The translations under genes and the position numbers were made by a program. From IMG/VR virus record IMGVR_UViG_2681813263_000016: a stretch of DNA of 30,048 nucleotides, one strand, 5' to 3'. Every line of letters begins with the position of its first letter. Within the stretch, counting starts at the first letter, position 1. The notes under the pieces were generated by a model, which saw only the letters and a program-made list of their open reading frames with translations, was not told where the DNA came from and did no database searches. This DNA is from a virus (taxonomy: Duplodnaviria; Heunggongvirae; Uroviricota; Caudoviricetes). Shown here one piece after another: positions 20,529 to 29,341 of this stretch.

Positions 20529-21116
20529 TCATCCCCGCGTGACGGACGACACGTTGTCGATAATTTCCAGACAGGCGTCGGTCACTTTCTCCATGCGGTT
20601 AAACCAGCCGTTCAGGTATTTGCCCTGGGCAGGTTTGGATTTGATGATGTCGGCATAAAAGCGGGAACGACGGACAATGCAGCGGGTCAGCAACCAGTCC
20701 GGGGTGGACAGGCTCACTGCCTTACGGGTACGCGGACCGATGATGCCGTCAGCATCCACATCAGCGGCTTCCTGCAAAATCCTGATAGCTTTTTTAACGC
20801 CATGCTGAACCGCCGCATCGAACACAAACATCGCCACGCCATCAGGCCACTGGTCACATCCGGCAGGCAGCCAGTAATCGCGCCAGTAAATCTGCGCGAC
20901 CTGTTCGCGGGTTAAATCCCTGATGCGGGTATCCGGTTTACCGTCGCCGCTGACATCGGTTTTGCCGTCAATCACACCGTCGCGGCGGTCAGAAATGCCG
21001 TATCTGGTTTCGCCGCCACGGTCAGTGGGGTCATTGACATAGACGCCTTCGATATCGGGACGCAGAATAAAATTCAGCGCATACTCAAAGGCCGGGGAGA
21101 ATTTTTGATTTTCCAT
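20529..21116 (-). CDS. endolysin, GH108-type N-terminal domain with C-terminal peptidoglycan-binding domain
   Basis: 195-aa ORF; N-terminal ...DIEGVYVNDPTDRGGETRYGIS... resembles the GH108 catalytic motif and ...DADGIIGPRTRKAV... the PG_binding_3 motif (by eye). No N-terminal hydrophobic signal-anchor. First gene after the mor-proximal terminator. Confidence 0.75.
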   Translation of the reverse strand: MENQKFSPAFEYALNFILRPDIEGVYVNDPTDRGGETRYGISDRRDGVIDGKTDVSGDGKPDTRIRDLTREQVAQIYWRDYWLPAGCDQWPDGVAMFVFDAAVQHGVKKAIRILQEAADVDADGIIGPRTRKAVSLSTPDWLLTRCIVRRSRFYADIIKSKPAQGKYLNGWFNRMEKVTDACLEIIDNVSSVTRG

Positions 21117-21171
21117 AAAAGCACCTGTGAAGCAGATTTAAACGTGGTCTGCTTCATGGTGCCGGAGGTAT

Positions 21172-21193
21172 AAAAAAAGCCGGATTTACCGGC
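21172..21193 (-). terminator. intrinsic-terminator-like hairpin with T-tract (GCCGG-TAAAT-CCGGC-TTTTTTT) 8 nt downstream of mor
   Basis: Seen: same stem-loop and 7-T tract as at 13620-13641 (26 nt identical); lies between the Mor-family gene stop (21202) and the endolysin start (21116). Confidence 0.55.
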
Positions 21194-21201
21194 TTCATTG
21201 A

Positions 21202-21651
21202 TTAAGGACGTCGTGGCGGACGACGAACGGGGTGAGGCAGGTTCGGGGAGTGGTAAAACAAATCCGGCTGGTATTTATTACACTCCAGACGCCGCATCCG
21301 CTTGATGGCCTTGTAGACGGTTTTATACGTCACCCCGTAACGCTGAACCAGTTCAGGAATATTATGGCCGTTAAAATCACGCCAGATACGCATATCCCGG
21401 ACAAGATTCTCCAGAATATTCCCCCTCGGAACATAAACCTGCATCCCGCCGATATAGCGACAAATCGCCACAACCAGCTCAAGGGAATGGGCAGGGTCTG
21501 CGCCAATCCGGGCCAGCTCTTTACGCAGCAGTGCGTTCAGTTCAGAAAGTAACGCCGGATAAGCCGTGTTTTCCTGGTAATCGTTAAGGTATTCCAGAAC
21601 GCTGTCGTCCCGGAAGTCTTCGAATAAATCCTGCTCTTTCATCTGTTTCAT
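21202..21651 (-). CDS. mor: Mor/C-family transcriptional activator (middle/late operon regulator)
   Basis: 149-aa ORF; C-terminal ...YVPRGNILENLVRDMRIWRDFNGHNIPELVQRYGVTYKTVYKAIKRMRRL... matches the Mor/C family HTH region as I recall it; sits directly after gemA as in Mu. Confidence 0.8.
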   Translation of the reverse strand: MKQMKEQDLFEDFRDDSVLEYLNDYQENTAYPALLSELNALLRKELARIGADPAHSLELVVAICRYIGGMQVYVPRGNILENLVRDMRIWRDFNGHNIPELVQRYGVTYKTVYKAIKRMRRLECNKYQPDLFYHSPNLPHPVRRPPRRP

Positions 21652-22199
21652 ACAGCAATTCTCCCGCTGTTTCGTGCGCGGGCATATGCACTGGTCAGTG
21701 CATCATAGCCGCGCAGCTTCCGCCCGGTTTCGCTCACAGGTAAAGGCACACCATGTCGGGCAAAGGCTTCCCGGATGCAGCGCATATGCCACTGTTTGAG
21801 CGTTTCGAGCACAACATGCAACGATTCCCCGTGACACCAGGCCAGCGTGGAAACACCCTGACCGCCATTACGTCTGGCCGTCAGGCGTTCAACGTATTTG
21901 TCCAGCGCAGCGTCGCTGATATCGGAGACGAAACCATCAAGGAACATCTGCTGCCAGATTTTATAAATCTTCTCGCGCGGTGTGACATGCCCCTTAAAGC
22001 GACGGCGGGGATGTTTTTTCTGCTTCTTAAAACCGCGCTCTTTCATGGCATCGAGCACACGTTCCAGTTGTGCAACGGACAGCTCGCGGCAACTGGTTTT
22101 GCCCGTGTGCTGCACCAGAAAGGCGCGGTAAGTGTCATCGTCGAGTTGTAGATCACGACGGGCGACATGAATTAATTTAATCAGGGATGTGCGATTCAT
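21648..22199 (-). CDS. gemA: GemA-like regulatory protein (Mu gp16 family)
   Basis: ORF 21648-22253; start placed at the internal ATG (MNRTSLIKLIHVARRDL...), preceded by GGAGG; position directly upstream of mor. Confidence 0.7.
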   Translation of the reverse strand: MNRTSLIKLIHVARRDLQLDDDTYRAFLVQHTGKTSCRELSVAQLERVLDAMKERGFKKQKKHPRRRFKGHVTPREKIYKIWQQMFLDGFVSDISDAALDKYVERLTARRNGGQGVSTLAWCHGESLHVVLETLKQWHMRCIREAFARHGVPLPVSETGRKLRGYDALTSAYARARNSGRIAV

Positions 22200-22272
22200 T
22201 ATCGTACCTCCAGAAAAGGGGGCGGTGCGGCAACACCGCCAGAATCCACTCACTAAACAGAGGAAACTTTTT

Positions 22273-22539
22273 ATGAAAAACAGTGAACAGCCTTATGATG
22301 TTGCAGGGTATGTCATTGCCTCAAGGTTGCTGATACTCCTTGTCAGAAAGGGGCTAATTACCGCAGAAGAAGGCAAAACGATCCTCGAAGCCGCAGCAAG
22401 CGGAGCGGCAGAGGCTCCGGCATTGAGAACAACGAATAATCCCATCCTGCAAATATCACAGCTAATCACTGATACCATCAGTTTGTTAGACCAAGATTCT
22501 GATGAATATCAAAAGCCTCAGCCATCTGAGCATCCGTAA
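22273..22539 (+). CDS. small hypothetical protein (88 aa) encoded on the opposite strand inside the early operon
   Basis: Seen: ATG at 22273 with GAGGAA 9 nt upstream; fills an otherwise non-coding 278-nt minus-strand gap; AT-rich; its 3' end overlaps the 3' end of the convergent minus-strand gene 22478-22825 by ~60 nt. Confidence 0.35.
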   Translation: MKNSEQPYDVAGYVIASRLLILLVRKGLITAEEGKTILEAAASGAAEAPALRTTNNPILQISQLITDTISLLDQDSDEYQKPQPSEHP

Positions 22540-22825
22540 GAATATCTTTATTTGATAGTCCCAGCCTGCGACGAATGTATTCCTCGCGGGCTGCTTCATT
22601 TTGTAGCGCCACGGCAGCTTCCACCTGGTTCATTTCACGGTTGATAATGCTCCGGACTTCTCTGGCGGTGAGGTCATGCTCAATACCATATTTAACAATA
22701 TCATGCATACGTTCCAGCATCCTTAAATTAGCCATGACGTCATCAATATTAACTGGTGTGAATTTCATTTCTTTATTCTCTGGTTTATTCATTTCGTAAT
22801 ACCTCTTCGCAATAAAAGATTTCAT
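22478..22825 (-). CDS. hypothetical early protein, helical
   Basis: 115-aa ORF with ATGA overlap to the upstream small ORF; AT-rich codon usage. Confidence 0.5.
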   Translation of the reverse strand: MKSFIAKRYYEMNKPENKEMKFTPVNIDDVMANLRMLERMHDIVKYGIEHDLTAREVRSIINREMNQVEAAVALQNEAAREEYIRRRLGLSNKDILTDAQMAEAFDIHQNLGLTN

Positions 22826-22968
22826 TGGGATAACGTTTTTGTATGCGCTCCATCACCTGCATACATGTCTGCTCTGTGGGCCAGATTTTTTTCCGTTACC
22901 GGAATGGCATCGCAGGCATCATTTCCGCAGGTGCCAACCAGCAGGACAAAGCCAGTTGACTTAATCAT
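22822..22968 (-). CDS. small hydrophobic-N-terminus protein (48 aa)
   Basis: ATG at 22968 lies 3 nt after the stop of the upstream gene; N-terminus MIKSTGFVLLVGTCGNDAC looks like a short signal or lipoprotein-like peptide. Below the ORF-track size cut-off as a stand-alone gene. Confidence 0.3.
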   Translation of the reverse strand: MIKSTGFVLLVGTCGNDACDAIPVTEKNLAHRADMYAGDGAHTKTLSQ

Positions 22969-23500
22969 GCTCGCTGATTTCCTGTGTTTCCGCCGGAACC
23001 GGTGAATAATCAAGAATGAGATAGCGCAGGACGTGGTCGGTGATATTCCAGCCACTGGAGCCACAAATAAAACGACCCAGCCGGATATCGATATAAGCCA
23101 TCACAAAACGGGGCATTCCCTGTTTACACATCTCGTCATCCACTTCAGCAACGATGTAAACCGACTCGCAGGTCAGTACGCCTGTCGCAAATTCTTTTGC
23201 CAGTGCCGGAATGGCATTGCCTTCCAGCCAGGGCAAAGAGCGGCGGAACGTGCACCATTGCGCACCATCAACATCGGGGTGCTCCGTTGAATTTCGCCCG
23301 GCAGGCGGCTCTGCCCGGGAGCGCGGAACGTCGTAAAAGCCGTTCAGTTCAGTCAGCACTCCGGCATCAACCGCATCACGCAGGAAATACACCATTGCAG
23401 AGACCGGCATCCTCATTTTGTCCGCCAGAACACCACAGGTCAGACGTCCGTAAGCCCGTAATAATGTGCTGACACCGTTCAGAACTTTTGCATCAATCAC
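22961..23500 (-). CDS. hypothetical early protein (179 aa)
   Basis: ORF with a 3-nt spacer to the upstream gene; no recognised motif. Confidence 0.5.
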   Translation of the reverse strand: MIDAKVLNGVSTLLRAYGRLTCGVLADKMRMPVSAMVYFLRDAVDAGVLTELNGFYDVPRSRAEPPAGRNSTEHPDVDGAQWCTFRRSLPWLEGNAIPALAKEFATGVLTCESVYIVAEVDDEMCKQGMPRFVMAYIDIRLGRFICGSSGWNITDHVLRYLILDYSPVPAETQEISEHD

Positions 23501-23503
23501 CGG

Positions 23504-24058
23504 TTATTCCTCCGTCAGTGCCACAAATTCAGAATGTTTAATGCGCTGGCATTCGGCAGGAACCGGTCCCTTAACCTCACCATCCAGCAGGCACACCTCA
23601 AACAAAATGCCGAATCCGTCACGGCTGTGGTGCATCGTCCAGACTGATTTGAGATCAAACATGTTGGGTACAACATCAACCCCGAGTTCATTACACAACC
23701 AGACCGGGAATGTGGGATATTTCCGGAGTTGCTCTTCATGTTCCTGAATAAGCGTCGCATTGTTTCGGCCTTCCGGTGTTGTTATATCCGGTACAACGCC
23801 ATAAAACTGAAATCCACCAATAAACAGTCCGTCTGATTTACCACGCCATAATTCCGGCGCTAATTGATTCATCCAGATACATTCAACCCGTTCATACCCT
23901 CTGTTACTGACAAGGGAAACACCGTCTGCGCCAAACGCACGCTGCAATGAGCAGATGATTTTGTCACGCTTAACAGAAACATCTTTCAGACAGCGAATCG
24001 TATAACCGTTAGCGGCTGCGTCACTCAGTTTAAAATAAGCATATGCTTTCATATTCAT
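23504..24058 (-). CDS. hypothetical early protein (184 aa), first gene downstream of gam
   Basis: ORF 23504-24109; start placed at the internal ATG (MNMKAYAYF...) preceded by AGAGGAA; an ATG 6 nt downstream is an alternative. No recognised motif. Confidence 0.5.
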   Translation of the reverse strand: MNMKAYAYFKLSDAAANGYTIRCLKDVSVKRDKIICSLQRAFGADGVSLVSNRGYERVECIWMNQLAPELWRGKSDGLFIGGFQFYGVVPDITTPEGRNNATLIQEHEEQLRKYPTFPVWLCNELGVDVVPNMFDLKSVWTMHHSRDGFGILFEVCLLDGEVKGPVPAECQRIKHSEFVALTEE

Positions 24059-24149
24059 TTCCTCTGGTCCTGATTCAGGCGCGAGCAATCCCCTGACGCA
24101 TCGCGCCATAATTAAAAGAAAGTGAATTAATTAAATATTCGTCGTGGTA

Positions 24150-24674
24150 TTAAATACCGGCATCCTGTTCAAACGGAATAATAGAAAAATCTTCAATGCC
24201 TGATTTAACTGTAATTCCGGCGACACCTGCGACTGCTTTCGGCTCCAGTAAAATCGCTTCCTTGTTGATTTCCTGTTTCGTGCGAATAAAGCGTTGAAGG
24301 CCAAGACGCTCCAGTGTTTCCATCACCGCATCCACACCGCGAATACTTACTGATGGTGGGCGCTGACGCCATGACACATCACCGGTTACCAGGTTTGCCG
24401 TCTTCACCTTGCCGCCGTTCGTCAGTTCGTCACGGTTCGCTTCACACCATCCCTGAACGCCTTTTGAAAGGGTTTCGATACTGGTTTTAAGCGGTGCAAT
24501 CTGTGAGGCGTATTTCTCCGTAATCTCAGCGATAGCGTCATTCATTTCCGTTTCAAGTCGTGCTGCTTCGCGTTGCAGGTCCCCAATCCGGCGGATATCA
24601 CATACCACGGCATCGCGGGATTGCGGAACATAAGCCGCTGCGGCGTTCCTGATTCGTTTTGCGGGTTTAGCCAT
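24150..24674 (-). CDS. gam: host-nuclease inhibitor protein Gam (Ku-like dsDNA-end binding)
   Basis: 174-aa ORF; the translation (MAKPAKRIRNAAAAYVPQSRDAVVCDIRRIGDLQREAARLETEMNDAIAEITEKY...) matches my recollection of Mu Gam along essentially its full length; AGGAG RBS. Confidence 0.9.
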   Translation of the reverse strand: MAKPAKRIRNAAAAYVPQSRDAVVCDIRRIGDLQREAARLETEMNDAIAEITEKYASQIAPLKTSIETLSKGVQGWCEANRDELTNGGKVKTANLVTGDVSWRQRPPSVSIRGVDAVMETLERLGLQRFIRTKQEINKEAILLEPKAVAGVAGITVKSGIEDFSIIPFEQDAGI

Positions 24675-25965: not shown

Positions 25966-26916
25966 CTACCAGTTCAGTAACCTGGGGTTGCTGTAAGCCT
26001 CCTTAAAAGCCGCTTTAATGTGACTTTTATTCAGGGATGTGCCTGCACCTTTTGCCGCCAGCCACGCATGATTCAGTGTGTGAGTTAATACACGCAATCC
26101 CCCGGGCTTTTCGGCTACCCTCATCAGCAGGTCCAGCTCATCTTCCTGTGTTACTCCCCATGCTTTGGCTACAGCCATCACATCGGTCTTTTTTACTTTG
26201 CGCAGTTGTTTTGTCATGGCAAAACGGCTGAACAGACGGGCCAGTTCATCAGTCCCACGACGGGTGGCATCCGCCATCTGTTTCGGGTTGCCAATTAAAA
26301 CCATCCCCACGCCAGTGGCATCCTGAATGGCGCGTAATTGCTCCAGACCATCCACACTTAAGTGATCAGCTTCATCAATAATCAGAAGGGGGTTAACACG
26401 GCCACTGGTTTCTTTACCACCACCCAGTTTTCTGCGAATGGCGCGGGTTATATTCCCCTTATTTCTTCCCGGATTATTAATTTCCAGCGCATATGCTATT
26501 TCAAGGAGGCATTCCGTTACGCTCGAATGTGCCGGAGCAAGAGTCACCATCCAGGCATTAGCTGTCCTGCGACAATATTCCCGGGCAGCAAAGGTTTTTC
26601 CGACACCCGGTACGCCAACAACGACACTGATAATCCCGAGTGAGCGCACTGTTTTAAACAGCTCATGCAAATCACAAAATGTCTGGGTCTTCACAACACC
26701 AGGGGTACCTGACAAGTTCTGTCCCTTCTGCCAGACCTGATACCATTTCTGTAATTTGTCATGCATACCTTCGACATTACCGTTGTACTCTCCTTTACGC
26801 AGAGCCGAGAGTGTTGCCGGAGACATTCCGGCTTCATCAGCAATATCTTCCTGAGACTTGTCGCCCTCGTTAATCAAAGCGTTAATAGTGTTGAAAACAT
26901 CATCAATATCAGTCAT
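25966..26916 (-). CDS. B: AAA+ ATPase, MuB-like target-DNA activator
   Basis: 316-aa ORF; Walker A GVPGVGKT and a Walker B-like LLIIDEADHL; N-terminal HTH-like region; directly downstream of the transposase. Confidence 0.85.
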   Translation of the reverse strand: MTDIDDVFNTINALINEGDKSQEDIADEAGMSPATLSALRKGEYNGNVEGMHDKLQKWYQVWQKGQNLSGTPGVVKTQTFCDLHELFKTVRSLGIISVVVGVPGVGKTFAAREYCRRTANAWMVTLAPAHSSVTECLLEIAYALEINNPGRNKGNITRAIRRKLGGGKETSGRVNPLLIIDEADHLSVDGLEQLRAIQDATGVGMVLIGNPKQMADATRRGTDELARLFSRFAMTKQLRKVKKTDVMAVAKAWGVTQEDELDLLMRVAEKPGGLRVLTHTLNHAWLAAKGAGTSLNKSHIKAAFKEAYSNPRLLNW

Positions 26917-26960: not shown

Positions 26961-26993
26961 AACAGTCCGTTCCCGCGGACTGTTTTTTTATTC
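26961..26993 (+). terminator. plus-strand terminator-like hairpin in the A-B intergenic spacer (AACAGTCCG-ttcccg-CGGACTGTT then TTTTTTTATT)
   Basis: Seen: perfect 9-bp stem, 6-nt loop, T-tract on the + strand only, i.e. antisense to the early operon. Confidence 0.35.
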
Positions 26994-29088
26994 AGGCCAG
27001 CGGATCATCTTCTTCCTGCATGGCAAAAAGTTTTTGCATCCCCAGCCGGAAATCGCGTTCAAATTCTTCGTCATGCTCTTCTTCATATTCCGGTTGCTGA
27101 ACTGCCACCACATTACCAACCGGGCGATAAACATTACTCAGCCAGGGTTCAGCCTGTTTGTGTTCCAGAATCTGAATACCTTCATCTTCAGCATCACGAA
27201 TTTTTTCCTCAGCGCGTTTGCGCATTCCTTTAATACGCTGCTGTTGTTTGTGATATTCAGCACTGACAGCAAAGGCTGCGCGTTTATTGCCGTTCCATAT
27301 CGCCTCACAGATAAAGCTGCCGTCCTTGCGACGTACCGTAATTCGCTCGGCGTCATGAATGTCATAACTGATAAGCACTTTGCGACCGTGTTCGTCACGC
27401 AACTCCGGCGCGTAGTAAATATTGTTCAGCCACTGAATTTCGCAGCGTCTTACCGGTCGTTCCACCATTGGGCGGAACATGTCGCGCAGCTCAAGATCAC
27501 TCAGCCACTCAATTTCGGTGTCTTCTTCTGCCAGGCGTTTTTTTCTGAACTCTGTCGGGCTGTAATGCCGTCCGTTCGGTTTCATCGGCAGCTCAGAATG
27601 CGGGCGGTTGTTGTACCATTCCACGCCTTCACGAATAGCCTCAATAAGCTCCGCCCACGATGGCAGCTCGCGCATTGCCGCTTTCTGGCGGTCGTTCAGA
27701 GGCTTGTCCTGTTGCAGGGCGTTAAACGCTGAACGCAGATCACGGTTAAGTACACGCAACGATTCCCGGTCAGCACCCTTGCCAAAATAGGTGCGATACC
27801 TCCTGGCTATACGCATCGGCAGTGTCCGGTTCAGGCGTTCAATAATGCCGCGTCCCTGTGGATTACCGGCAATACCGGTAGGGTGTTTAATCCCCAGGCG
27901 TGGCAGAATACCCACGACCTCTTTGTCCAGCATGTCAGCCGTTTCACCGGAACCGTTATCCGAGTAATACAGGAACGGTTTTCCGTGGTTGCGAATGCCG
28001 TGCTGTATCGCACCGGCAACGGCGAACACGTTTTCGGCAAGGTCAAGACTCCAGCCAACAACAAACCGTGTTCCACCATCGATCACAAACGTGACTTCCG
28101 GTGAGAATGGACGCCCGTGGATCGGATGCGCACATTTCAGCTTCATACCGTGACCGTCACCAATCCAGACATAATTCACCGGCATAGCTGTCCAGTCGCG
28201 GCGGGTGAATCCTTCAAGCTGACGGTATTCACTGCCGGTAACGCGCCCTTTTTGTCTCACCACTTCCGGCAGTTTTTTCATGGCATACCGGACAACATCA
28301 TAGGAAGGCATCACCTCCAGCATGTACGGTTCGTCCGCATGGCGACGCTGCCATTCTGCGACAAAATCCTCGTAGGCTTCTGACATGGGTCTGCCGTTCA
28401 CCTGCCGATACTGCGCCAGAAATTCAGGCAGCCAGCTGATTTCTTCCGGTTTTATTTCGTCGCGTTTTCCCGGTGCCAGTAACAGCAGCCGTTCGGCGGC
28501 GTTCTGCGACTGGTTGTATTTCAGAACCCACTGGTAAAGTGGATCGCGGCTGATAGTACGATTAGCGCCACGTTTTGCATTGGCGTTAACTGCGGCCTGT
28601 TGCAGGCGCTCCGGCAGCTCACCTTTACGGGCTTTTTCAACAAGAAAGTTAATGGCTTTCAGTCGCCCGAGGTTACCGGCGCTTTCCAGCTTCAGCACTT
28701 CCACCACCAGCGCAGCTCTTGCTTCAGATACCCGGCGCTGGTTTTCGGTCAGCGCATTCAGGCGTTCTTCCATCAGTTGTGGAGAACCGCGATATGCTTC
28801 GATTGCCTGGACAGCGTCAGGATTGCGTGTTTTTCTGGTAACAGCTTTCACTTCAGAAACATTGTTCTCTGTAGCCACCAGCTGTTCCACATAGCGTTCA
28901 CGCAGTGCCTTTCGTGTTATTTCAGGCAGACAATCAATGTGGTACTCAATGGCTTTTGTGCCTTCCCGACGGCGACTAACGTCACCAAGATCACGAGAAA
29001 AACGCTGTAACGCCTGTCGGATGCCTTTTGTGGTGGCTGGCATTCCTGGTACGCCGAGCAGGTCATTTACGGTAACGTACGACTGCAT
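26992..29088 (-). CDS. A: DDE transposase, MuA-like
   Basis: ORF 26992-29157; start placed at the ATG 1 nt after the ner stop (MQSYVTVNDLLGVPGMPATTKGIR...); N-terminal ...GTKAIEYHIDCLP... resembles the MuA winged-helix; catalytic-core-like motifs ...YVWIGDGHGMKLK... and ...YYSDNGSGETADMLD...; ner-A-B order. Confidence 0.9.
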   Translation of the reverse strand: MQSYVTVNDLLGVPGMPATTKGIRQALQRFSRDLGDVSRRREGTKAIEYHIDCLPEITRKALRERYVEQLVATENNVSEVKAVTRKTRNPDAVQAIEAYRGSPQLMEERLNALTENQRRVSEARAALVVEVLKLESAGNLGRLKAINFLVEKARKGELPERLQQAAVNANAKRGANRTISRDPLYQWVLKYNQSQNAAERLLLLAPGKRDEIKPEEISWLPEFLAQYRQVNGRPMSEAYEDFVAEWQRRHADEPYMLEVMPSYDVVRYAMKKLPEVVRQKGRVTGSEYRQLEGFTRRDWTAMPVNYVWIGDGHGMKLKCAHPIHGRPFSPEVTFVIDGGTRFVVGWSLDLAENVFAVAGAIQHGIRNHGKPFLYYSDNGSGETADMLDKEVVGILPRLGIKHPTGIAGNPQGRGIIERLNRTLPMRIARRYRTYFGKGADRESLRVLNRDLRSAFNALQQDKPLNDRQKAAMRELPSWAELIEAIREGVEWYNNRPHSELPMKPNGRHYSPTEFRKKRLAEEDTEIEWLSDLELRDMFRPMVERPVRRCEIQWLNNIYYAPELRDEHGRKVLISYDIHDAERITVRRKDGSFICEAIWNGNKRAAFAVSAEYHKQQQRIKGMRKRAEEKIRDAEDEGIQILEHKQAEPWLSNVYRPVGNVVAVQQPEYEEEHDEEFERDFRLGMQKLFAMQEEDDPLA

Positions 29089-29089
29089 A

Positions 29090-29341
29090 TCACGACACCT
29101 TCCTGATAAATCCATCGTTACGATACCGGCTGGGCCAGATGATTTCTGGCGGTACACCTATAGCGTCAGAAATTACGCGTTCGTATTTTTTGTTTGGTGT
29201 GCGAACTACCGCTTTCAGTGAATCCTGAGCATAACCAGCATGGAGTGAAAGCTCCCGGAAGGAAGACCACCCGTTATCTTTGAGCGCCAGCTGAATCTTC
29301 AGCGAAGGCCAATCGCGGTCACTATCTTCTCTTTGTCTCAT
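29090..29341 (-). CDS. ner: Ner-like DNA-binding early regulator
   Basis: 83-aa ORF divergent from the repressor; C-terminal ...PPEIIWPSRY... is the Ner-family signature as I recall it. Confidence 0.8.
   Translation of the reverse strand: MRQREDSDRDWPSLKIQLALKDNGWSSFRELSLHAGYAQDSLKAVVRTPNKKYERVISDAIGVPPEIIWPSRYRNDGFIRKVS

Follow-up and report, generated by a model that had tools for sequence, protein, structure and literature searches.

Accessory early genes between gam and gemA in an SfMu-type prophage of the Mu family

Genes and features of the gam–gemA interval

The window, meaning the whole analysed stretch of 30,048 nucleotides, is an SfMu/Mu-type prophage lying on the minus strand. Over this whole stretch it shares 99.8% DNA identity with an annotated RefSeq prophage of E. 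coli FDAARGOS_943. Its genes from gam to gemA follow the order gam, A (DUF5420), B (Mu gp11 orthologue), C (frameshifted), D (Mu gp14 orthologue), E (gp15) and gemA, with gp12 and gp13 absent from the interval. The ORFs of A to D are encoded on the minus strand and E on the opposite one. The features are the following:

24150..24674, minus strand: gam, left flank, encoding the Mu Gam/Ku-like DNA-end-binding protein (PF07352, E 1.9e-43; 91% identity to Mu Gam)
23504..24052, minus strand: A, predicted DUF5420-family early protein of 182 aa, orthologue of SfMu ORF11/gp11 (99.5% identity; phrog_2260, E 8e-55)
22961..23500, minus strand: B, Mu gp11 orthologue of 179 aa with a GTG start (PF25754 Gp11_C; phrog_1949, E 1.9e-96)
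22785..22968, minus strand: C, frameshifted pseudogene of a 60-aa Cys-containing small protein (phrog_16556; A7 versus A6)
22478..22792, minus strand: D, Mu gp14 orthologue of 104 aa (phrog_6075, E 1.5e-42, profile positions 2–100 of 100)
22273..22539, plus strand: E, Mu gp15 orthologue of 88 aa (phrog_8747, E 7e-26, profile positions 1–86 of 88)
22221..22240, minus strand: conserved GC-rich hairpin between the gp15 start and the gemA ribosome-binding site, a terminator-like match
21648..22199, minus strand: gemA (gp16 family), right flank, 183 aa from the ATG at 22199 (PF06252, E 7e-33)

A to E are real genes rather than chance ORFs, with PHROG families for all of them, dN/dS values of 0.21–0.43 and close homologues annotated in RefSeq/GenBank. 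An earlier note on this DNA had described four uncharacterised genes between gam and gemA. The four ORFs are present where it placed them on the minus strand, but one of them (C) is frameshifted, the starts of A and D probably lie further downstream, and a fifth gene on the opposite strand (E) had been missed.

The start of A is likelier to be the ATG at 24052 (182 aa, MKAY...) than the one previously chosen at 24058 (184 aa). The ATG at 24052 is preceded by GAGG 8 nt upstream and is the start used by PGAP and by most homologues. D most likely begins at the ATG at 22792 (104 aa), not at 22825, the 115-aa version starting 33 nt too early; AAGAGG is found 9 nt upstream of this ATG, and both Mu gp14 and the PGAP calls in two relatives (L011 and L013, 104 aa) agree with it. 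The 201-aa GTG-started ORF of gemA is likewise an over-extension, with the alignment to Mu GemA (79% identity) beginning at residue 19 and a PGAP call of 552 bp.

The translational coupling proposed for these genes holds in part. A and B are separated by a 3-nt spacer (TAA-ccg-GTG), the end of A contains GGAGG, and B and C overlap by 8 nt (ATGATTAA). However, the 'ATGA overlap' between C and D is a by-product, because C is frameshifted and D appears to start at 22792. The AT-richness attributed to the block is also only modest, with a GC content of 0.47 in A, 0.53 in B, 0.44 in C and 0.42 in D against an early-region mean of 0.50.

Transcription of the genes would take place as part of a long early operon that extends from the transposase genes past gam and on to gemA and mor. 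This co-transcription is suggested by the gene orientation and by the lack of internal terminators. Rfam, promoter and terminator scans of the 21.0–25.5 kb region returned a sub-threshold sroD match and sites at chance level (5 terminator-like sites versus 3.5 ± 1.9 in shuffles), the exception being the hairpin before gemA. The sequence of this hairpin (GGCGGTGTTGCCGCACCGCC, then CCCTTTTCT) is conserved up to a single loop substitution in Mu and in the relatives L012 and L014, with indels in the flanking non-coding bases; L012 shows one further change, in the flanking G-run.

The DUF5420 and gp11 genes

A is assigned as a divergent member of DUF5420 (PF17457). The membership is transitive because A itself scores below the PF17457 gathering threshold (26 bits), and its search against Pfam gave no match at E<=0.1. 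The profile built from close relatives of A retrieves P0135, P0138, P0143, P0145 and other proteins over nearly the full profile length, and 7 of the 10 distant members tested among those retrieved pass PF17457 with 40–98 bits. Furthermore, WP_000649298.1, which differs from A by one residue, is named 'DUF5420 family protein' by PGAP, and A shares the DUF5420 motifs, namely the N-terminal YFK, PD..EG, P.F..W and the C-terminal IK(H/K)SEF(V/I)ALTEE.

Only P90, G97, F117, I173 and E183 are invariant in the wider DUF5420 alignment. The possibility that A is a PD-(D/E)xK nuclease was rejected, as the candidate residues are not invariant across the family alignment: in some members R or N takes the place of D91, and the position preceding I-K is occupied by E, R or Q, at a spacing of about 80 residues. 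A shows no catalytic signatures. The AF2 model of A reaches a pLDDT of 89.4 and a pTM of 0.80, so that the DUF5420 fold is confidently predicted, without a solved relative.

B contains the PF25754 Gp11_C domain (133.6 bits versus a cut-off of 27) and is 80% identical to Mu gp11 over its full length (176 aa). Both proteins have the same two-domain layout and early-operon position, B comprising an N-terminal winged-helix domain, a disordered linker and the Gp11_C domain. In the predicted structure, a bundle of three helices and a wing at the N-terminus superpose on winged-helix domains of the known Lrp/AsnC, MarR and ArsR types; the pLDDT of this segment is 68–83, while the whole model is moderately confident (pLDDT 61). 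The overall pI of B is 5.0, an acidic value that is unusual for a DNA-binding protein. Its homologues fall into 222 clusters, every one of them 'hypothetical'.

Structure prediction with fold comparison, as suggested in the earlier note, gave a predicted winged helix in B; no solved structure or annotated fold related to A was found, and its BFVD matches are uncharacterised proteins only. The same note had recognised no known family among the four products. The Pfam score of B and the PGAP name given to the near-identical relative of A contradict this, and profile searches identify PHROG or Pfam families that make three of the four genes recognisable as orthologues of named Mu/SfMu genes.

DUF5420 is followed by gp11 within 3–4 nt in the window, in SfMu, in O157:H7 and in L012, L014, L043 and L046. 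DUF5420–gp11(–gp12) is a recurrent, tightly spaced cassette directly downstream of gam. In complete E. coli genomes, gp11-like DNA was found in 318 of 5,426, and DUF5420-like 3' ends in about 220, from which we infer that the cassette is carried by about 220 of the 5,426, or about 4%. In Mu, gp11 comes directly after gam and is followed by gp12, whereas in the window DUF5420 precedes B and gp12 is missing. Mu, D108 and L013 lack A, and L011 has a broken copy.

SfMu ORF11/gp11, with its 99.5% identity, occupies the same slot after gam as A. It has been published as unique to SfMu (PMC4406740), but in the present comparison it is spread widely among Mu-like prophages of E. coli. It has also been suggested that Mu gp12 is the diverged equivalent of ORF11 (PMC4406740). 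This equivalence was rejected: the hhalign probability is 9.9%, over 40 N-terminal residues only, gp12 is not matched by the DUF5420 HMM, and the gp12 and DUF5420 genes are present together in L046 and O157:H7. Besides the position after gam in Mu-likes, DUF5420 genes are found after Erf–YqaJ–SSB in an integrase prophage and after a protein resembling RusA or the DNA-polymerase sliding clamp (beta-clamp), and in several non-Mu contexts they lie among unannotated small genes.

The smaller genes C, D and E

The frameshift in C maps to a run of seven A residues at 22886–22892, compared with six in the intact 60-aa gene of E. coli RIVM_C019217 (one extra A). The 48-aa ORF reported previously (22822–22968) is the 5' part of C. 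PGAP also labels the gene 'frameshifted' in two near-identical prophages, L001 and L011, which together with the window makes three assemblies. The intact 60-mer matches phrog_16556 at profile positions 2–55 of 55 (E 1.4e-27), whereas the 48-aa ORF matches through residues 3–27 only, as a fragment rather than an intact member. C is predicted to be non-functional in this prophage.

The intact C family and the zinc-ribbon-like Mu gp13 occupy the same slot, between gp11/gp12 and gp14, and both are 60 aa long. However, C belongs to phrog_16556 and not to the gp13 family, with a hydrophobic N-terminus and 4 Cys, in contrast to the 8 Cys in CxxC pairs of Mu gp13.

The lipobox rule (PROSITE PS51257) requires [LVI][ASTVI][GAS]C with the Cys at about 15–35 and a K/R in the n-region. 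C fails it with V-G-T-C and Cys14, despite K3 and a hydrophobic GFVLLVG stretch. Distant homologues of C start with MIIGFILLVSAC, which provides a canonical V-S-A-C lipobox at Cys12, with no K/R, and the first Cys is invariant in the C-family proteins. The lipoprotein-like character that had been suggested for the 48-aa product is thus seen in distant relatives, but not in the local, frameshifted gene. No transmembrane segment was found in C or E, with Kyte–Doolittle maxima over 19 residues of 1.16 to 1.51 versus 1.6, although such a scan could miss the short signal peptide of a lipoprotein.

Across residues 17–115 of the 115-aa ORF, D and Mu gp14 share 72% identity, and D belongs to a narrow family of 7 clusters. 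E is convergent with D, overlapping the 3' end of D by 62 nt, and is 54% identical to Mu gp15, with an annotated identical protein (WP_072035588.1). Mu gp14 and gp15 show the same convergent overlapping arrangement just upstream of gemA. Both D and E are more diverged from Mu than gam (91%). Compared with Mu, the ORF of E is open and free of indels despite a divergence of about half in its central part, and the upstream non-coding DNA does contain indels.

A reverse-strand gene recurs at the gp15 spot in diverged Mu-likes (phrog_585 in L043 and L046). No homology was found between gp15 and the 136-aa reverse-strand gene of L046, which is the phrog_585 member, nor between gp14 and the 104-aa gene of L046, which belongs to phrog_1988, the SfMu gp14 family. 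A gp14–Mom fusion (P0149) was set aside, since it looks like a deletion or an assembly artefact.

These features bear on a reading in which the small genes benefit the lysogen or exclude superinfecting phages, the C-family protein being an exported lipoprotein and gp15 a moron-like gene expressed independently of the early operon. The lipobox and invariant Cys of the distant C homologues, the orientation of gp15 opposite to the early operon and the reverse-strand gene at its spot in L043 and L046 are consistent with it, and a benefit to the host has been proposed for low-level transcription in lysogens from Pe, the early promoter (PMC3820752). However, C is both frameshifted in the window and at odds with the lipobox rule, the promoter scan of 21.0–25.5 kb detected no sigma-70-like promoter ahead of gp15, the hydropathy maximum of gp15 (1.51, Kyte–Doolittle, 19 residues) is below the transmembrane threshold, and A, B and D are left uncovered. 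This reading is very unlikely.

Selection, function and the role of the interval

The gam–gemA interval is a presence/absence mosaic across Mu, SfMu and Yersinia Mu-like phages, and the same mosaic extends across E. coli, Kluyvera, Brenneria and Gilliamella prophages. Compared with relatives, dN/dS is 0.42 for A, 0.21–0.26 for B, 0.26–0.29 for D and 0.40 for E, whose codon-position bias is weak, against 0.10 for gam, the accessory genes evolving 2–4 times faster than gam. The interval is a variable accessory region, given this mosaic and the dN/dS of 0.2–0.4 versus 0.1 for gam. Differences from relatives in A, B, D and E are mainly synonymous, and selection on the accessory genes is purifying but relaxed. 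The comparison across related prophages and the faster evolution thus bear out the variable content next to gam that had been anticipated; the idea of free-floating cargo does not survive it, as A and B belong to the recurrent DUF5420–gp11(–gp12) cassette.

In a further reading, the block would be mostly decaying baggage in this prophage, its genes having been functional in an ancestral phage and now, under relaxed selection, contributing nothing. Several signs of decay agree with this: the frameshift of C is shared by the window and two near-identical prophages, A has a Cys in place of a nearly invariant Trp at position 23 (184-aa numbering), which the FDAARGOS_943 copy keeps, the strain VL40 copy of A is broken into two pieces, and SfMu carries gp12 remnants. 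Nevertheless, A, B, D and E are all full-length in the window with those mainly synonymous differences, D and E are identical to RefSeq proteins, and elsewhere the prophage appears intact, its late region being covered by long ORFs without interruption. Decaying baggage is considered quite unlikely.

PADLOC and NCBIfam searches of the genes returned no meaningful match, no gene matched the PHROG 'host takeover' category, and no enzymatic motif or defence-family match was found among them. PDB searches by sequence with A, B, D, E and their profiles gave nothing below E 0.4, and literature searches on DUF5420, PF17457, PF25754 and the PHROG ids found no papers.

[quoted passage not shown] Equating A to D with arm would be conjectural, because arm and cim are not tied to specific ORFs, no published link of this kind having been found. 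The Mu SEE genes are non-essential and affect replication, immunity, regulation and host killing (PMC4553209), and the functions of the Mu semi-essential (SE) early genes have been described as 'largely unknown' (PMC3820752).

The earlier note had proposed the block as candidate host-takeover or anti-defence cargo, and as one of the most likely places for a novel system. In this reading, at least one of A, B, D and E would bind and block a host immune system early, for example one for restriction or abortive infection, or one that senses DNA ends blocked by Gam. The genes are expressed early and evolve fast (dN/dS about 0.4 in the case of A and E), their products are small and probably non-enzymatic, and their presence/absence is mosaic. 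A lambdoid-type prophage likewise has DUF5420 among its early accessory genes, adjoining recombination genes, and an early accessory region beside recombination genes is the usual seat of anti-RecBCD and anti-restriction genes. Moreover, in the Pseudomonas Mu-like phage JBD30 gam and gemA license Gabija targeting (PMC12407980). A counter-measure at gam–gemA would make sense because of this licensing, and the genes adjoin both gam and gemA.

Against this, the genes show no likeness to annotated host-takeover PHROGs and no PADLOC-related match, A has no solved or annotated structural relative, and DUF5420–gp11–gp12 keeps its synteny as a stable cassette in diverged Mu-likes rather than forming a shuffled island. 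B, in particular, is fairly strongly constrained (dN/dS 0.21). DNA-mimic anti-restriction proteins are not supported either, with none of the proteins as acidic as DNA mimics (pI 4.6–5.6, without extreme charge). Lambda Gam, P22 Abc and T7 Ocr resemble A to E in location and size only; no sequence or fold similarity to them was detected, and A to E lack a DNA-mimic charge. An anti-defence role for A to E is possible, but PADLOC, the PHROG category, charge and the structure and fold searches give no specific pointer to it, and as an explanation of the block it is unlikely.

The interval is probably a set of standard accessory early genes of an SfMu-type Mu-family prophage, encoding small binding proteins that aid Mu DNA transactions. 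A, B, D, E and the C-family genes are already catalogued as Mu-family accessory genes. As judged from sequence comparison, there is no new gene among them and the block is ordinary rather than a new system, because it consists of the usual Mu accessory genes, one broken by a frameshift and a fifth, on the opposite strand, previously missed. Homology to Mu early genes is clear, although it does not extend to a known housekeeping role.

As accessory genes of this kind, they would encode small cytoplasmic proteins that bind their targets rather than catalyse reactions. Early in lytic growth these proteins would engage DNA itself, or the DNA-transaction proteins of the host or the phage, and so make Mu replication or transposition more efficient. 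B would act through its predicted winged helix. A would bind protein partners among the DNA-end and recombination functions around it, the gene neighbourhood being what suggests a DNA-transaction role; GamMu and GemA both affect the host handling of DNA ends (PMC12407980). Such genes would be helpful but dispensable. The Mu semi-essential early region is a decades-old gap, with genes catalogued and a molecular function for almost none. The comparison sharpens this picture with a recurrent cassette after gam, a DUF5420 family that is not restricted to SfMu, an orphan predicted fold and a predicted winged helix in gp11; it reveals no new kind of system, and gives a rational order for experiments.

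Finally, DUF5420 and gp11, with gp12 where present, might be a conserved, translationally coupled module that partners Gam at the ends of Mu DNA or on transposition intermediates. It could, for example, hide ends that Gam has bound, and that are free of RecBCD, from Gabija-type nucleases or other host sensors. Such a module is very unlikely; if it exists, it would represent an early function with an orphan fold.

Gene content of the gam–gemA interval

The minus strand of the window encodes a Mu-family prophage, in which MuB is followed by small early genes, gam, the interval considered here, gemA, mor and a GH108 endolysin. The landmark genes are:

26992–29157, minus strand: MuA
25966–26916, minus strand: MuB
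24150–24674, minus strand: gam
21648–22199, minus strand: gemA
21202–21651, minus strand: mor

The segment running from gemA to gam (2.6 kb) aligns with Shigella phage SfMu over 91% of its length at 88% identity, and differs at only 4 of 2,601 bases (99.8% identity) from a prophage annotated in E. coli FDAARGOS_943. Four ORFs (184, 179, 48 and 115 aa) had been described in this interval as candidate host-takeover or anti-defence cargo. All four exist, but the first and last probably have shifted starts, the third is frameshifted and a fifth gene had been overlooked. With near certainty, the five genes have their orthologues among the catalogued early genes of Mu/SfMu. The accessory region was correctly recognised, but it is not a new system. 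Its genes, their families and even this very sequence already figure in public annotation. The by-products of the analysis are corrected gene models, the frameshift, gp15, a recurrent DUF5420–gp11(–gp12) cassette and an orphan DUF5420 fold.

The AT-richness mentioned in the earlier note is modest only, with a GC content of 0.42–0.47 in the first, third, fourth and fifth genes and 0.53 in the second, against 0.50 for the whole early region.

Within 20529–21651 (minus strand), the GH108 endolysin lies directly after mor, and the gp18–gp20 and C genes present here in Mu and SfMu are missing. An SfMu-like early region is therefore joined to a differently organised middle/late junction, comparable to prophage loci L006–L008.

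Revised gene models and family assignments

Families can be assigned where none had been recognised: DUF5420/phrog_2260 for the first product, Gp11_C (Pfam PF25754, 133.6 bits) for the second and phrog_6075 for the fourth. The DUF5420 gene most likely starts at ATG 24052, giving 182 aa, since this codon has a well-spaced GAGG and is the start used by PGAP and in most homologues. Its product is 99.5% identical to SfMu gp11/ORF11, and PGAP names a one-residue variant "DUF5420 family protein". The protein itself has no direct Pfam match; only 15 relatives emerged when 1.84 billion representative proteins were searched exhaustively with a profile, and seven of the ten distant relatives tested passed the DUF5420 (PF17457) threshold. 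Motifs common to the protein and its distant relatives extend along the whole length (YFK, PD..EG, P.F..W and the C-terminal IK(H/K)SEF(V/I)ALTEE). The predicted structure is of high confidence (pLDDT 89.4, pTM 0.80) and resembles only three predicted viral structures, all of uncharacterised proteins (TM 0.70–0.74). Only P90, G97, F117, I173 and E183 are invariant in the wider DUF5420 family, which argues against an enzyme.

Codon 21 of this gene (window 23990) encodes Cys. Trp occupies this position in over 90% of close homologues, the FDAARGOS_943 copy among them, and its replacement could be mildly damaging. The DUF5420 gene of a 99%-identical prophage in E. coli VL40 (L011 1705–2310) is annotated as two pieces, of 64 and 62 aa, which shows that the lysogen can dispense with it.

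The second gene starts at GTG 23500, with GGAGG within the last codons of the DUF5420 gene; the 3-nt spacer reported between the two is correct. It encodes the Mu gp11 orthologue (80% identity), modelled with moderate confidence (pLDDT 61) as a three-helix N-terminal domain, a disordered linker and the beta-rich Gp11_C domain. As the protein is acidic as a whole (pI 5.0), binding to DNA cannot be taken for granted.

The 48-aa ORF is no gene in its own right, being the 5′ part of a gene frameshifted after codon 27. Where the aligned, intact 60-aa homologue in E. coli RIVM_C019217 has six A, the window has a run of seven (22886–22892), and PGAP flags the same stretch (22785–22968) as "frameshifted" in two near-identical prophages. 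The intact protein aligns with phrog_16556 over its whole length (E 1.4e-27); for the 48-mer, the match is confined to residues 3–27. The suggestion of a lipoprotein-like peptide has some basis in distant homologues from Brenneria and Symbiopectobacterium prophages, which begin MIIGFILLVSAC, a sequence that includes a canonical lipobox, and whose first Cys is invariant, but the local V-G-T-C with Cys14 fails the lipobox rule. One may speculate that RNA-polymerase slippage on the A7 run restores a little full-length product.

The "ATGA overlap" with the next gene is an artefact of this frameshift. The fourth gene most likely starts at ATG 22792 (104 aa), as indicated by AAGAGG 9 nt 5′, the Mu gp14 start and PGAP calls elsewhere, and encodes the Mu gp14 orthologue (72% identity). 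In a database protein of 154 aa (P0149), gp14 is joined to a C-terminal portion of Mom; this fusion probably stems from a deletion derivative (mini-Mu-like) or a misassembly.

The overlooked gene (22273–22539, plus strand; 88 aa) is convergent with gp14, overlapping it by 62 nt, and corresponds to Mu gp15 (54% identity, phrog_8747). It is a putative coding gene for which the evidence is weaker than for the others: third-position bias is weak, but the ORF is open and indel-free relative to Mu despite a roughly half-diverged middle, while the adjoining non-coding DNA has indels. No promoter was found for it. In the diverged Mu-like loci L043 and L046, a non-homologous reverse-strand gene (phrog_585, 136 aa) occupies the same pre-gemA spot.

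Mosaic distribution and selection

The interval was mapped in 40-odd loci. As the earlier note had expected, its content varies between relatives; it is a mosaic, yet with a stable core. Mu gp12 and gp13 are absent from the window.

Gene content of the gam–gemA interval in the window and relatives
Mu: gp11, gp12, gp13, gp14, (gp15)
SfMu: DUF5420, gp11, gp12 remnants, gp13, SfMu-gp14, gp14, (gp15)
Window: DUF5420, gp11, frameshifted third gene, gp14, (gp15)
E. coli RIVM_C019217: DUF5420 absent
E. coli VL40: DUF5420 in two broken fragments
L006–L008 (prophages; NCBI assemblies and metagenome contig): DUF5420 and N-terminal part of gp11 only
Gilliamella, Haemophilus and betaproteobacterial Mu-likes: none of the interval genes

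The gp11 gene lies within 3–4 nt after DUF5420 in the window, SfMu, L012, Yersinia phage Tongde, L043, L046 and E. coli O157:H7, with gp12 next in L046 and E. coli O157:H7. An unlikely but more far-reaching reading would make this cassette a Gam-linked module. In L046 (4274–4912), a DUF3164 protein (phrog_846) occupies the gam slot, followed by the same DUF5420–gp11–gp12 cassette, which is thus not strictly dependent on Gam.

Of 5,426 complete E. coli genomes, 318 contain gp11-like DNA, and only six have full-length DUF5420 DNA similar to that of the window. Another 215 match only its last 59 nt (window 23504–23562; ~88% identity), the rest of their DUF5420 gene being too diverged for blastn; in O157:H7, a diverged DUF5420 gene ends with this segment at its 3′ side. 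The 59 nt encode the invariant C-terminus ECQRIKHSEFVALTEE and hold the gp11 ribosome-binding site (Shine–Dalgarno), and might also act as a junction for recombination during mosaic exchange.

ORF11 was called unique to SfMu (PMC4406740), a claim outdated by the spread of DUF5420 across E. coli Mu-likes. The same paper's suggestion that ORF11 and Mu gp12 are diverged equivalents is unsupported, as both occur in the same genomes and profile comparison gave a probability of 9.9% only. Between SfMu gp12 and gp13, an unannotated gap of 515 bp (L002 2653–3220) holds two stretches with homology to Mu gp12 (E 4e-78 and 1e-07), so SfMu has a disrupted gp12 that is missing from the annotation of its record.

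Substitution ratios show purifying but relaxed selection on all five genes, with dN/dS of 0.42 (DUF5420), 0.21–0.26 (gp11), 0.26–0.29 (gp14) and 0.40 (gp15), compared with 0.10 for gam. The five genes are dispensable in nature.

Functional clues and flanking elements

The arm function is presumably located between gam and gem on the classical Mu map. Non-essential functions of this type (arm, cim) have been mapped to the Mu semi-essential early region (PMC4553209), whose genes have had undetermined functions for decades (PMC3820752). A recent preprint on a Mu-like phage of Pseudomonas shows that GamMu and GemA each alter host treatment of phage DNA ends (PMC12407980), so the block is flanked by two genes of that kind. 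DUF5420 follows gam in Mu-likes, Erf, YqaJ, a 364-aa protein and SSB in an integrase-type prophage, and a protein resembling RusA or a DNA-polymerase sliding clamp in another element; in three further contexts its neighbours are unannotated.

As the leading, though tentative, mechanism, we propose that the products are small binding proteins without enzymatic activity which, produced early in the lytic cycle, would act on DNA or DNA-transaction proteins and thereby improve Mu replication and transposition. The anti-defence cargo envisaged in the earlier note is unlikely and has nothing specific in its favour. PADLOC, NCBIfam and PDB sequence searches with the interval proteins gave no result, and none of these proteins is acidic enough for a DNA mimic.

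The interval genes, gp15 excepted, share one transcriptional orientation, and no convincing internal terminator was found in the gam–gemA block. An inverted repeat spotted by eye only, GGCGCGA...TCGCGCC (7-bp stem, 16-nt loop; 24070–24099, minus strand), sits in the 97-nt gap between gam and the DUF5420 gene, just 5′ of the ribosome-binding site of the latter. A GC-rich hairpin (22221–22240, minus strand), followed by CCCTTTTCT, lies immediately 5′ of the gemA ribosome-binding site. Apart from one substitution in the loop, it is conserved in Mu, L012 and L014, while the flanking non-coding bases have indels, and may be an attenuator or RNA-stability element of the early transcript.
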